Source: Clostridia bacterium
Lineage (GTDB): Bacteria > Bacillota > Clostridia > Oscillospirales > CAG-272
Assembly: GCA_017501545.1 (NCBI GenBank)
Contig: JAFVWS010000044.1
Coordinates: 10,240 to 74,239 of the forward strand
Length of the DNA: 64,000 nt
Direction: 5' to 3'
Below are positions 30,690-34,038 of this stretch, one piece after another. Numbering within the stretch: position 1 is the stretch's first letter; the number at the start of each line of letters is the position of its first letter. Position numbers and translations under genes: made by a program. The notes below the pieces were generated by a model. The model was given only the letters and a program-made list of their open reading frames with translations. It was not told where the DNA came from and made no database searches.

Positions 30690-31039
30690 GGGTGATGTTC
30701 TTAGCGGAGAATTTGAAAAATACCGCTAAGTGCGAGCATCGCATTTGACTAGTCAAATACTTTATGGGCTAAGCCCAAACCCATATTACAAGCAGAAAGA
30801 GAGAACAAAACGGGGTAATCCGTAATGTCCTCTCTTTTCTGTTAGTGAAGTTTTCGCTACCGCGAAAGTGAAGTTGCTATGCAGTGAAGTTTGTGCTACG
30901 CACAAGTGAAGTTAAGTTTGCCCGCTTTGCCGAAGGCAAAACTTCACTATCCGTAGGATAACTTCACTTACGTAGTAAACTTCACTTGCCCGTAAGGGCA
31001 AACTTAGTTATGCGTGATACTCCGTTAAGAGTATCACGC
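30690..31039 (+). repeat. 'Comb' repeat element copy 3 (core AGTGAAGTT/AACTTCACT)
   Basis: AGTGAAGTT at 30844, 30867, 30883 and 30905; AACTTCACT at 30940, 30960 and 30978. Identical 28-nt hairpin at 31012-31039. The left end is an 18/23 inverted match to the right end. Confidence 0.85.
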
Positions 31040-31185: not shown

Positions 31186-31200
31186 ATTAGTGAAATAAAA

Positions 31201-31223
31201 AGGGGAGGCATATTGCCTCCCCT
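31201..31223 (-). terminator. Intrinsic terminator following the displaced kinase 3' end
   Basis: AGGGGAGGCA-tat-TGCCTCCCCT with a TTTTATTT tail on the minus strand. Confidence 0.8.
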
Positions 31224-31228
31224 ATAAA

Positions 31229-31390
31229 TTATTTATCATTTTCATCCCTTTGGGTTTTAAACTCAAACCAGAAGGTAAAGCCCTTGCCAAGCTCGCTGGA
31301 AACTCCAAAGCGTGAGCCGTGAAGGAGAAGAATGTTTTTTACAATGGATAGACCCAGCCCAGTGCCAAGCACAGCACGCTTATGCACCTT
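31229..31390 (-). pseudogene. Orphan 3' fragment of the histidine kinase gene
   Basis: 31257-31390 matches 31950-32083 ungapped at 126/134. Encodes KVHKRAVLG...KGFTFWFEFKTQRDENDK* with its own stop. Confidence 0.85.
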
Positions 31391-31787
31391 TATAGCCTCC
31401 ATCTGTCGAGGGAGGTGTCAACGGAGTTGACGGAGGGAGAGTGCTTTTAATTAATGCGTCAATATATATGCAAACGCCGTTGAAATTTTTATCAATTAAA
31501 TAGTTTGGAATCCTAATAACGGATAAATCCAATTCTTCAAGATCTTTTGTTCTTTCAGCGTCTTTAAGTAATTGCATTTCAGTATAATGTCCACTTCCGT
31601 CAAGCTCAATAACAAGCTTGGCCTTTGCGCAGTAAAAGTCTACAATATAATTGCCTAAAGGTTTTTGTCTTTGAAATCGAATAGGGTAACTTCTTAAAAA
31701 ATCATACCAAAGATGCTTTTCGTGACGTGTCATATTTTTACGGAGCTCTTTGGCAAGCGGAATGTTTGCTTTATTATAAGTCTTCAT
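31380..31787 (-). CDS. DUF559 (Vsr-like) endonuclease
   Basis: AKELRKNMT..E..LW..LR...F.RQ.P.G.YIVDFYC..AKLVIELDGSGH signature. The RBS (GAGGGAG) lies within the upstream repeat. Confidence 0.9.
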   Translation of the reverse strand: MKTYNKANIPLAKELRKNMTRHEKHLWYDFLRSYPIRFQRQKPLGNYIVDFYCAKAKLVIELDGSGHYTEMQLLKDAERTKDLEELDLSVIRIPNYLIDKNFNGVCIYIDALIKSTLPPSTPLTPPSTDGGYKGA

Positions 31788-31920
31788 AATCTCTCCCTCA
31801 GTTTCACAGGTGAAACAGCTCCCTCGTCAGAGGGAGCCTTAATTATTCCTCAATCTTAAACTCAAACCGAACAGCCTCCATCTGTCGAGGGAGGTGTCAA
31901 CGGAGTTGACGGAGGGAGAG
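31395..31920. mobile_element. REP-bounded DUF559 cassette (three 47-48 bp repeats)
   Basis: 31395-31441 and 31874-31920 are identical; 31791-31838 is an inverted, diverged, structure-preserving copy. Mobility is inferred, not shown. Confidence 0.65.
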
Positions 31921-31924
31921 AAAA

Positions 31925-33352
31925 TCAAATCTTTTCAGTTCTCTCAATCTTAAACTCAAACCAGAAGGTAGAGCCCTTGCCAAGCTCACTGGAAACTCCA
32001 AAGCGTGAGCCGTGAAGGAGCAGAATGTTTTTTACAATAGAAAGTCCAAGACCAGTGCCAAGCACAGCACGCTTATGCACCTTGTCAACCTTGTAGTATC
32101 TATCCCAAATAAGAGGCAAATCCTCCTCGCTAATGCCCTCGCCAGTGTCGATGACTGACACCCTTACAACGTCGTCTAAAAGCTCCTCACGCACGGTTAT
32201 AAGCTTGTCATCGCCAGTATAGTTAATGGCATTATTAATTAGGTTGTAAATCACCTGCAAAAGCCTTGTTTCGTCGGCGTTTACAAATATTTCCTCGCCT
32301 GCTTTTTCAAATACAATGTTATATTCCTTATGCTCAAGTAGCTTTTCGTACCTTTTTACCGTGTCAGAAATTGCCCTTGTAAGAGAAATTGTCTTAGGCT
32401 CAATGGTATGTGCGCCGGATTGTAGCTTGGAAACGGTGAGCAGGTCGTTTACAAGGGAGTTTAGCCTTGCAGTTTCATCAATGATAACCTGCATATTTTC
32501 AGGAGTATTTTCCTCGGGGAAGTCACGCATAACCTCACTATATCCAGAAATTAGTGTAAGAGGCGTGCGCAAATCGTGCGAGATATTTGCAATAAGCTCC
32601 TTTTGCGTTGTATCAAGCTTTTTAAGCTCGGAAACGGCTGTGTTTAGTGCAGAGGCAAGCTCCTCAATTTCGCGTGGACCCTTCTCGTCAAATTTAACGT
32701 CGTAGTCGTAAAGGGAAAGTGACTTTGCCTTTTTGCCCATTGAAGAAATTGGGGCAGAGATGTTTCTTGCGATAACAAATGACATAAGCACCGAAATTAA
32801 AATGGCAAAAATTAGCATAAATATAAGCAGAGTGTTAAATGCCATTTTTGTAATTGGCGGTGGGTTAATGTTTGCATTTAAGACAATTAGGTGCGTTGGT
32901 GCACCCTCATCACCACTGCCAGCTAACATAACGTAAATTAGCTCGCTATCAAGCTTGGTTTTATAGGTTAAGTCCTCACTTTCCATAGCAAGGGCGCGCC
33001 ATTCGTTTAAGCGTGCGTCGTTTTCAAAATATCCGTCCGAAACAATAGATGGGTCGCTGATAAATATGTCCTTAGGCACCCCGTCTATATCAAAAACCGC
33101 AATAGCAATATCGTGTCTATACTCGTTTCCTAAGCCCTCAAGAAAGCCTTCAAGGTCATCTCTTTCAACATTGTGAGAAATTTCCTTGGCAAGCCTCTCA
33201 GATGAGGACGTCTTTACAATCTCGTAAACTGAGCGTAAAAGAAGTGATTCAAACGCCCAAATAAACACAATCAAAACAAGGCAAAGAGCAAGCATTGATA
33301 TAAAAATGCGAGTACGAATAGACGGACGGCGATTATCGTTTCTTTTTATCAT
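31925..33352 (-). CDS. HAMP-domain sensor histidine kinase
   Basis: ANISHDLRTPLT, NLINNAINYT, DTGEGI and GTGLGLSIVK; two TM helices. Confidence 0.95.
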   Translation of the reverse strand: MIKRNDNRRPSIRTRIFISMLALCLVLIVFIWAFESLLLRSVYEIVKTSSSERLAKEISHNVERDDLEGFLEGLGNEYRHDIAIAVFDIDGVPKDIFISDPSIVSDGYFENDARLNEWRALAMESEDLTYKTKLDSELIYVMLAGSGDEGAPTHLIVLNANINPPPITKMAFNTLLIFMLIFAILISVLMSFVIARNISAPISSMGKKAKSLSLYDYDVKFDEKGPREIEELASALNTAVSELKKLDTTQKELIANISHDLRTPLTLISGYSEVMRDFPEENTPENMQVIIDETARLNSLVNDLLTVSKLQSGAHTIEPKTISLTRAISDTVKRYEKLLEHKEYNIVFEKAGEEIFVNADETRLLQVIYNLINNAINYTGDDKLITVREELLDDVVRVSVIDTGEGISEEDLPLIWDRYYKVDKVHKRAVLGTGLGLSIVKNILLLHGSRFGVSSELGKGSTFWFEFKIERTEKI

Positions 33353-34038
33353 TTTTCCTCAAAGCGATAGCCCATACCGCGAATGGTAACAATAAAATTA
33401 CTGTATTTACCAAGGCTTTTTCTAAGAATTTTGATGTGGGTGTCAAGGGTACGGTCATCACCAAAGAAGTCGTAGCCCCAAACGTCAGAAAGAAGCTTAT
33501 CACGAGAAAGAGCAATGTTTTTGTTTTTAAGCATATAGAAAAACAGCTCATATTCCTTTGGTGACATATCAATTCTTTCACCATCAATATAAACAATACG
33601 TGCGGTTAAGTCGGCAACTAAGCCACCACCAGCAAGGGAGATAATCTCGTTTTTTTGCTCCTCGGTCTTTTGAGCCCCCCTTGTTCTTTTCATGATAGCC
33701 TCAACGCGAAGCATAAGCTCCTTTGGGGAAAATGGCTTAACAACGTAGTCGTCAATGCCGATTTCAAAGCCGTTTATCTTGTCGTATTCCTCACCGCGCG
33801 CAGATAGCATAATAATAGGAACGTCACTGTTTTCTCTTATCTTACGGCTGGCAGAAAAGCCATCAAGCTCTGGCATCATAATATCCATAATAACAATATC
33901 GAACTTATCCCTTGCAAACTTAGCCACTGCGTCCATGCCGTCAGTTGCCTCAGTAACAGTATGCCCCTCAAATTCAGCATACTTGCGAATGAGCTTTCTT
34001 ATCATTTCCTCATCGTCAACTATTAAAATATTGTACAT
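33349..34038 (-). CDS. OmpR/PhoB family response regulator
   Basis: LIVDDE, DIMMPELDG, DDYVVKPFS and RTLDTHIKILRK. Confidence 0.96.
   Translation of the reverse strand: MYNILIVDDEEMIRKLIRKYAEFEGHTVTEATDGMDAVAKFARDKFDIVIMDIMMPELDGFSASRKIRENSDVPIIMLSARGEEYDKINGFEIGIDDYVVKPFSPKELMLRVEAIMKRTRGAQKTEEQKNEIISLAGGGLVADLTARIVYIDGERIDMSPKEYELFFYMLKNKNIALSRDKLLSDVWGYDFFGDDRTLDTHIKILRKSLGKYSNFIVTIRGMGYRFEEK

Follow-up and report, generated by a model that had tools for sequence, protein, structure and literature searches.

A probable nested insertion site of a DUF559 cassette and structured DNA arms at the 3' end of a sensor histidine kinase gene in an uncultured gut Clostridia species

The locus described here lies in a 64,000-nucleotide (nt) stretch of DNA (the window) from Clostridia bacterium GCA_017501545.1, contig JAFVWS010000044.1, a metagenome-assembled genome (MAG) of 49 contigs from an uncultured gut Clostridia species. 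In this window the gene of a two-component sensor histidine kinase is followed by further copies of its own 3' end, a solo structured arm and a 0.45-kb cassette consisting of a DUF559 gene between two arms of about 48 nt in inverted orientation. We consider it probable that the 3' end of the kinase gene has served as a nested insertion site. All parts lie on the minus strand, and coordinates are window positions; tails are written in one-letter code up to the stop codon, and ORF stands for open reading frame and aa for amino acids. From the kinase gene onwards the parts are as follows.

31925..33352 (-), live histidine kinase gene from the ORF list, 475 aa, with Pfam HAMP, HisKA and HATPase_c matches
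31950..32083 (-), A2, the live copy of a 134-nt repeat (codons K-V-H-K...F-E-F-K), carrying the foreign haplotype D described below
31925..31949 (-), tail 2 and stop codon (…K IERTEKI), an allele of the kinase tail, with homologous tails in other strains and species
31873..31920 (-), solo 48-nt arm ('REP' copy 2), a pyrimidine run and two hairpins, 4 nt past the kinase stop codon
31843..31868 (-), third, nested kinase-end copy of 26 nt (GGTTTGAGTTTAAGATTGAG GAA TAA, FEFKIEE and stop), between the solo arm and the cassette
31791..31838 (-), left cassette arm, the inverted-orientation version (GGCTCCCTC-TGAC-GAGGGAGC, GTTTCAC-CT-GTGAAAC, purine run)
31380..31787 (-), DUF559 nuclease ORF (Vsr-like PD-(D/E)XK fold), 135 aa, Pfam PF04480, 1e-26
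31394..31441 (-), right cassette arm ('REP' copy 1), 48 nt, identical to the solo arm
31391..31393 (-), 3-nt junction between right arm and orphan (ATA on the minus strand)
31257..31390 (-), A1, the orphan copy of the 134-nt repeat; the first 32 nt are foreign, the rest equals the empty-site allele plus a private TTT
31229..31256 (-), tail 1 and stop codon (…K TQRDENDK), the resident end of the kinase gene, now displaced
31194..31223 (-), original kinase terminator (AGGGGAGGCA-ATA-TGCCTCCCCT and a T-run), called as strong and intrinsic, with a 10-bp stem and T-run, at 31201-31223

The kinase gene sits downstream of its own response regulator gene (33349-34038), and the adjoining regulator together with the Pfam matches to HAMP, HisKA and HATPase_c marks the host gene as that of a two-component sensor histidine kinase. 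The protein is identical to P0121, which is encoded on six other contigs. Short spacers separate the parts: TTTT between the KIERTEKI stop codon and the solo arm, GTTC (4 nt) between the solo arm and the third kinase-end copy, and TTAA between that copy and the left arm, which ends 3 nt (ATT) ahead of the DUF559 ATG. Every cassette-bearing strain of the species has the ATA junction, and another species, G010, has one that is recognisably homologous. The DUF559 gene is the sole domain-bearing ORF between A1 and A2, and the ORF list and Pfam matches of the insert showed neither an integrase nor a transposase in the cassette, as had been noted in a first-pass annotation of the locus.

Copies A1 (31257-31390) and A2 (31950-32083) form an ungapped direct repeat of 134 nt with exactly eight mismatches, which a repeat search stretches to 152 nt at 89% identity by entering the diverged tails. 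The duplicated stretch represents the last 45 codons of the kinase gene. In the kinase frame seven of the eight differences are synonymous (GGT/GGG, CTT/CTG, GGA/GGT, CTT/CTA, TCT/TCC, CTG/CTT and AGT/AGC) and one, TCT/TTT, exchanges S for F; the downstream copy reads G, G, T, A, C, T, C and T at the mismatched sites. At least seven synonymous changes in eight have a probability of 4e-4 if 25% of random single-base changes in the kinase frame are synonymous, and of 0.009 if about 40% is taken as the expectation under decay of the orphan in situ. These codon pairs reproduce those listed in the first-pass annotation, as does the orphan with its own tail, KTQRDENDK, and a terminator (31201-31223) right behind it. 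Its contention that this is no neutral tandem duplication is borne out by the haplotype comparison given below and by the tests for synonymous excess, which support the view that the A1/A2 differences are allelic, selection-filtered polymorphism and not neutral decay. It had seen two kinase ends at the locus and had overlooked the third, the 26-nt copy at 31843-31868.

The orphan can also be read as an ORF on the minus strand (31229-31402), since an in-frame ATG (GATGGAGGCT) supplied by the right arm at its 3' end opens a frame for a 57-aa product (MEAIKVHKRAV...), which gene callers reported as a HATPase_c fragment on the related contigs L050 and L054. Since it has no obvious Shine-Dalgarno sequence, this ORF is probably not expressed.

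An allelic series was found among the strains of the species, on the contigs of the 15 members of the kinase's 90% cluster, which are 97-99% identical except in the last 2-9 residues. Three contigs without insert (L038-L040) contain the repeat sequence once; the kinase ends FEFKTERVENDK followed by the stop codon, and then come the same terminator, directly after the kinase stop codon, and the same downstream sequence as behind A1 in the window. Cassette-free strains had been expected to end with the orphan-type tail and this terminator, and they do so: their live tail, KTERVENDK, differs by 3 nt from the window orphan tail KTQRDENDK. A cassette-only allele (L041) has the order kinase, KIER, TTAA, left arm, DUF559, right arm, ATA, orphan A, KTQRDENDK, terminator. 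In L042-L044 the order is kinase, KIQRKEDI, CA, an element termed B (a different double hairpin), ATCACA, a 19-nt duplicate, KTQRDENDK and terminator. L045-L047, which have no DUF559 gene, combine the two kinds: kinase, KVERTEKI, TTTT, arm, ATA, A, KIQRKEDI, B, duplicate, KTQRDENDK, terminator. The exact KTQRDENDK orphan tail thus also stands behind element B (L042-L047), and in L045-L047 the two A copies are identical at 133-134 of 134 positions though their tails differ completely. The nested type is represented by the window and by L050-L054, and two more empty-site classes (L048, L049) have another terminator. Empty, cassette-only, solo-arm and nested alleles therefore coexist in one species.

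The third copy, FEFKIEE, evidently was the live kinase end of a former cassette-only stage, on the basis that L041 is cassette-only with the live end KIER and that L050 has the equivalent nested copy as KIEK. In the solo arm of L050, about 70-105 nt past the kinase stop codon, a 12-nt internal deletion has removed the first hairpin (CTCTCCCTCCGTCAACTCCCTCGACAGATGGAGGCT). A unitig of run X13 reads arm, ATA, A (mosaic), tail 2, TTTT, arm, that is, it holds an extra unit, which would show that the array can expand.

Past FWFEFK the kinase tail is hypervariable, with eight types among the 15 otherwise 97-99% identical proteins (P0001, P0121-P0134), namely KIERTEKI, KVERTEKI, KIQRKEDI, KIER, KIEK, KTERVENDK, KIERMEK and KVERAEK, and it is so across the genus as well. 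This hypervariability appears to be driven by traffic of elements at the kinase stop codon.

Comparison of the alleles at the eight A1/A2 sites separates two components. The empty allele has the A1 state at all seven synonymous sites and the A2 state at the S/F site, and since TTT is confined to window-type orphans the S/F change would be a private mutation that arose as the orphan decayed. In the live copy lies a foreign haplotype, D (GTG CTT GGC ACT GGT CTT GGA CTT TCT ... CTG), with 11 single-nucleotide polymorphisms (SNPs) in 43 nt, all synonymous and private to window-type strains; outside this patch the kinase gene is 1-2% divergent from those of other strains. In the haplotype table (against L038-L050), D was seen only in cassette-bearing strains. 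It also fills the first 32 nt of the window orphan, and in L041 it is present only in the orphan (first 45-62 nt), the live copy being of resident type. The 7:1 pattern is thus best read from these alignments as seven imported allelic differences and one decay mutation of the orphan.

Foreign kinase sequence on both sides of the cassette implies that the kinase end was already duplicated in the incoming DNA, which recombined with the resident allele by crossovers within the 134-nt repeat. The arrangement of L041 can be explained by one Campbell-type crossover (p = q) or by a tight double crossover. For the window a single Campbell-type crossover was rejected, as the foreign haplotype occupies positions 21-30 in both copies and at least one further exchange is needed. 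That exchanges of this kind take place is clear from the near-identical A copies with unlike tails in L045-L047 and from the extra unit in X13. In species G010 the arm/orphan junction is the same as in the window and the copies are identical at 117 of 118 positions, so the duplication would be older than the import. The first-pass model, in which a donor 3' end replaced the resident end and pushed the old end and its terminator downstream, is therefore retained in so far as an end was imported and the old one displaced; it has to be amended in that donor sequence flanks the cassette on either side and the duplication came before the import.

The DUF559 domain occupies residues 11-109 of the ORF, and its last 20 or so codons run through the right arm. 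The product matches PDB 3HRL (2e-12), and the residues D..E.D..H are conserved in 30 DUF559 homologues from the genus, in which about 75 copies were counted in 29 of 41 genomes, just three of them with stop codons. Among the copies at the kinase locus in four species synonymous codon differences exceed non-synonymous ones, and by these measures the gene is kept by selection. The copies of the four species are about as diverged as the neighbouring kinase genes (73-82% identity), so the cassette would be old at this site in the clade, though within the species of the window it is evidently polymorphic. The DUF559 family is very large, and its function is unknown. Some homing enzymes have a PD-(D/E)XK or Vsr-like (EDxHD) fold. 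A literature search on DUF559 found no description of such cassettes.

The solo arm and the right arm are exact 48-nt copies of each other, where zero such copies are expected by chance. Each arm is predicted to form two hairpins next to a pyrimidine or purine run that stays unpaired, with a DNA folding energy of -8.7 kcal/mol (z = -3.1) for the solo and right arms and -12.8 kcal/mol (z = -4.6) for the left arm, whose inner stem shows compensatory changes in species G004 and G001. The cassette arms are inverted in architecture only, their inner hairpins being different, and no Rfam family matches the arms. In L015 (G006) and L012 (G016) the kinase terminator (GGCTCCCTCTGACGAGGGAGC and a T-run) is identical to the outer hairpin of the left cassette arm; either reversed arms act as terminators, or a cassette since lost has left half-arm relics here.

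A survey of 29 orthologous kinase loci across the genus associates displaced gene ends with the arms. A displaced kinase end was found at all seven loci with arm-like elements and at none of the 22 loci without them. At least six different junctions occur at the kinase gene, with duplications of about 10, 19, 20, 23, 36, 66 and 134 nt. In G001 the repeat on either side of the cassette is 66 nt long with one mismatch and takes in the tail, the stop codon and six more nt; G004 has short displaced tails only; the duplicates of element B measure 36-46 nt in G019/G015 and 23-26 nt in G016, and duplicates of 19 nt and 20 nt occur within the species. All of these loci follow one layout: gene end with stop codon, 0-25 nt, arm in gene orientation, 0-7 nt, copy of the gene end, terminator. 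The 'new' tails (KIERTEKI, KVERTEKI, KIQRKEDI, KIEKSQDA and others) can all be aligned with one another and are homologous kinase tails (K-[ITV]-[EQ]-[RK]-x-[EQ]-[NDK]-[DI]), not element-encoded sequence. Solo arms without DUF559 leave the same displaced-end footprint at the kinase gene. As far as these loci can tell, then, the duplication is tied to the arms, not to the kinase gene or to DUF559 alone.

The layout recurs at other genes of the window genome, in five copies at C34:131268-131701 and also at C7:20090-20455, C7:21846-22266, C30:245 (C30:80-330), C41:19538 and C18:43612 (C18:43440-43700), the last with seven synonymous versus one non-synonymous difference in 13 codons. Over ten displaced ends, 42 codon differences are synonymous and eight are not, where about 40% synonymous differences are expected if the copies decayed in place (P = 3e-10). 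Both ends of a second DUF559 gene, on C21, show the layout too.

At unrelated genes such units consist of the last 6-30 codons and the stop codon, a double-hairpin arm, the gene-end copy and a terminator, singly or in arrays; C5:7310-7761 is likewise an array or unit of displaced gene end and arm. The last copy of these arrays often has a different tail, and the copies differ from one another mostly by synonymous changes. At the 3' end of the second DUF559 gene (C21:38200-39244) three tandem units of the last 12 or so codons plus arm follow one another with a period of 79, four of their five differences being synonymous, and at its 5' end three tandem units of ribosome-binding site, ATG, six codons and arm have a period of 74, which suggests that the ends of the element's own gene are displaced in the same manner. 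On C41 (16640-16808 and 19428-19593) an arm and the orphan end behind it recur at a distance of 2.8 kb, copied into the terminator of an unrelated, AraC-like gene and accompanied by a target duplication of roughly 13 nt (TGGTGCGGCTTTT), so that the moved unit can apparently extend to sequence 3' of the arm.

We consider it likely that these loci arose by insertion with a long, variable target duplication, followed by spread and shuffling through homologous recombination. As the first-pass annotation had suggested, a survey of other DUF559 loci revealed duplicated flanking gene ends, about half of the 30 loci in the genus being flanked by direct target repeats of 19-127 nt. In fresh insertions the repeats are identical or 98% identical, tail and stop codon included (L063, 127 nt; L068, 59 nt; L080, 47 nt; L070, 42 nt; G001, 66 nt), and because of these identical copies the primary event looks like a long target duplication. 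Without integrase or transposase, the elements would insert at or just past stop codons, producing a duplication that varies from about 10 to 134 nt and might result from staggered nicks made by a Vsr-like nickase or from double template switching at structured, fork-stalling arms. The duplicated gene end would then provide built-in homology on both sides of the cassette, through which the whole unit could enter empty alleles in other strains by homologous recombination, either ordinary or stimulated by a nuclease, and carry short stretches of the donor gene end along. Later recombination between the copies, and between identical arms, would shuffle, expand or delete modules.

Several points weigh against this account of duplication and recombinational spread. 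ORF-less solo arms leave the same footprint, and we infer both the role of DUF559 and the mechanism of primary insertion; the genome contains only two DUF559 genes versus tens of arms, and it has Y1-transposase-like genes that are conceivable helpers. Neither excision joints nor circles (or empty sites) were found in the contig-level Logan read data of cassette-bearing samples, where the X13 unitig with its extra unit was the one informative joint. The donor lineage of haplotype D was not found, a 26-mer (GGCACTGGTCTTGGACTTTCTATTGT) giving only chance matches in Deferribacteres kinases among genome contigs and no match in JGI metagenome contigs. In L047 the live and orphan tails differ completely even where the 134-nt repeats are identical, which a simple target duplication does not predict, and later recombination stopping at the border of homology has to be invoked. 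Finally, short-read assemblies could mis-phase SNPs over the identical stretches of 31-35 nt in the repeat, though the five assemblies described below agree.

Familiar routes of insertion were considered as candidates and set aside. A fixed-stagger transposase is excluded by the range of duplications from 10 to 134 nt, and integration by an integrase at an att site by the missing integrase and the variable repeat length. A classical transposon or miniature inverted-repeat transposable element (MITE) is contradicted by the lack of true terminal inverted repeats and by duplications of about 10-134 nt in place of a short fixed length. A diversity-generating retroelement or other retro-mechanism was rejected because the genome has no RVT_1 match and the mismatches are not adenine-specific. 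As for RAYT-driven REPs, three weak to moderate Y1_Tnp matches were obtained, the best of which (C22:13849-14238) is not flanked by arms.

Among the alternatives, true homing as in fungal mitochondrial mobile ORFs (mORFs) deserves most attention, although we judge it unlikely as the main explanation. Here the DUF559 protein would cut empty kinase alleles near the insertion point, and the cassette would be copied during repair along with the donor gene end next to it (co-conversion); thanks to the duplicated end, the host gene would stay intact. The nuclease ORFs are intact and under selection (about 75 copies in 29 of 41 genomes, three with stops), the cassette occupies the orthologous site in four species, and mitochondrial genes with C-terminal duplications beside homing endonuclease ORFs are documented (PMC6279837). 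Occupied and empty alleles were found side by side in the population, with the donor flank (haplotype D) co-inherited with the cassette, and the short foreign tracts on both cassette flanks resemble co-conversion tracts. Yet ORF-less solo arms of both kinds, A and B, give the same displaced-end footprint at the same gene; some 30 DUF559 insertion sites have no obvious common target sequence and vary in duplication length; and a target inside the repeat would persist in both copies, which leaves the immunity of occupied alleles unexplained. The first-pass description of a gene-restoring, homing-like insertion accordingly stands for the import of a gene end without a recombinase, whereas the footprint itself belongs to the arm family and is also made by solo arms without DUF559. 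Nuclease-driven homing by DUF559 is, on sequence evidence, possible.

Homology-facilitated illegitimate recombination of linear donor DNA, in which the kinase gene anchors the left end, an illegitimate join upstream of the resident end fixes the right end and the arms are mere passengers or fragile sites, would account for live tails that are always the kinase tail of another lineage running straight into the arm, and for junctions right of the arm with 1-7 nt of unassignable sequence and variable re-entry points; many cases of long target duplication are also known from naturally competent species. It is very improbable all the same, for random joins do not predict a right junction within 7 nt (0-7) of the 3' end of the arm in every event, the foreign haplotype of the window continues to the right of the junction, so that the right crossover was homologous, and the fresh cases have identical tails on both copies. 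We give equally little credence to a tandem or target duplication in situ followed by point mutation only, with selection on the live copy and decay of the orphan. The identical fresh duplications at other loci, in G010 and in L047, and the private S/F mutation of the orphan are what it would predict, but synonymous differences are in excess both here (7 of 8, P = 0.009) and over ten loci (42 of 50, P = 3e-10) relative to the expected 40% or so, the seven synonymous differences form a clustered foreign haplotype that lies in the live copy here and in the other copy elsewhere, and the tails differ in length and sequence, each being homologous to the kinase tails of other lineages.

That cassette-free and cassette-bearing haplotypes of different strains were mis-joined in a short-read MAG, which the first-pass annotation had named as grounds for giving up its model, is scarcely credible: the genome is a MAG in 49 contigs, the repeat has identical stretches of 31 nt or more that break unitigs and several strains of the species share public samples, but an identical kinase with the same downstream architecture and SNP phasing is present in four other assemblies made from other samples with other assemblers (L051-L054), Logan unitigs from at least six runs of four studies tile the locus including the A1/arm junction, a single 63-nt unitig spanning the orphan/arm junction is present in several runs of different studies, and related architectures occur in L041, L045-L047 and L050 and in the species G010, G001 and G004. 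Because the layout recurs in five assemblies and in unitigs of several studies, it is not a mis-join.

The account of duplication followed by recombinational spread finds its closest parallel in the category of insertion with long target duplication, defined for restriction-modification (RM) units (Nobusato et al. 2000, Gene 259:99), in which repeats of more than 30 bp and of variable length span the stop or start codon and no mobility gene is present; a cycle of insertion, amplification through the repeats and release was proposed for it (Furuta, Abe and Kobayashi 2010, PMC2853133). As in that category, the insert of the window lacks a transposase and an integrase and encodes a nuclease, the repeats exceed 30 bp, vary and typically span a stop or start codon, the sequence is single-copy at empty sites and the host gene stays intact. 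Unlike the published RM units of several kb, the insert is here a 0.45-kb DUF559 cassette with arms, or a 48-nt arm alone, and has no methyltransferase; it is thus a variant of the category and not an RM member. With its mosaic SNPs the present locus also adds population-level evidence for a spread through the repeats by recombination. To our knowledge, no mechanism for insertion with long target duplication has been established since 2000.

Mitochondrial mORFs resemble the locus in having a free-standing endonuclease gene at the end of a host gene, with a foreign live C-terminus and the resident C-terminus orphaned downstream. Paquin et al. are said to have described, in 1994, a mobile endonuclease ORF of Allomyces atp6 that brings a replacement gene C-terminus. 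C-terminal duplications of atp6 and cob beside GIY-YIG/LAGLIDADG ORFs occur in fungal mitochondria (PMC6279837). The locus of the window differs in that the protein is a Vsr-like DUF559 and not a GIY-YIG or LAGLIDADG enzyme, in its bacterial chromosomal setting, in its structured arms, in that ORF-less arms do the same, and in that cleavage of the empty allele is putative.

With REP/REPIN-RAYT systems, repeats of the BoxC, PIT and intrastrand-triplex type and Correia-type MITEs, the arms have in common that they are short, abundant, structured and mostly intergenic, near stop codons or terminators; inverted pairs around one small gene recall REP-like repeats, and the pyrimidine run of the arm matches the pyrimidine arm of the hairpin, as in triplex-motif repeats. 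Unlike in REP/REPIN-RAYT systems, the gene between the arms is a DUF559 nuclease gene and not a Y1 transposase gene, and the best Y1_Tnp match lacks arms. We know of no target duplications of 20-134 nt made by REP or MITE insertions. Integrase-mobilised islands and prophages at gene or tRNA 3' ends likewise carry a replacement 3' end and displace the resident end as a partial direct repeat, whereas the insert described here has no integrase and no fixed att core, its repeat length varies and it is 100 times smaller.

More tentatively, and with somewhat more doubt than confidence, the elements may represent an undescribed class of recombinase-less element in gut Oscillospirales, made up of double-hairpin arms with or without a DUF559 nickase gene, that inserts at gene termini through long variable duplications and then invades empty alleles across strains and species through the duplicated ends. 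If so, it would be a bacterial chromosomal counterpart of mitochondrial mORFs, and gene 3' ends, such as the hypervariable C-terminal tail of the kinase, would be hot spots of modular allele exchange. Small elements would then be able to make the 3' ends of ordinary genes fast-evolving and modular without breaking the genes. The special value of the locus is its natural allelic series within one species: empty, cassette-bearing, solo-arm and nested alleles with mosaic SNP tracts tie DUF559 to insertion with long target duplication and make both testable. The questions that it poses are whether a small Vsr-like nickase or nuclease with structured arms creates long duplications, and whether spread uses them. 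Annotators should be warned that a short 'HATPase_c fragment' ORF behind a cassette of this kind is a displaced gene end.

Elsewhere in the genome, a small ORF starting MYYVYILTNKTKTVLYT, a GIY-YIG-like start, lies within a complex cluster of short direct repeats (C22:9336-10112) and may be another small nuclease cassette. A 'comb' array of hairpins at 30690-31039 of the window contains the sole above-threshold Rfam match, to Gut-1 (RF01706; 53 bits at 30936-31010), and splits the terminator hairpin ACACACCGAG/CTCGGTGTGT of a convergent gene for a lipoprotein of 1431 aa. That hairpin is intact (ACACACCGAG-TTGC-CTCGGTGTGT) in the conspecific contigs L038, L041, L042 and L045, so the 'comb' appears to be a second, independent insertion polymorphism in the same intergenic region.

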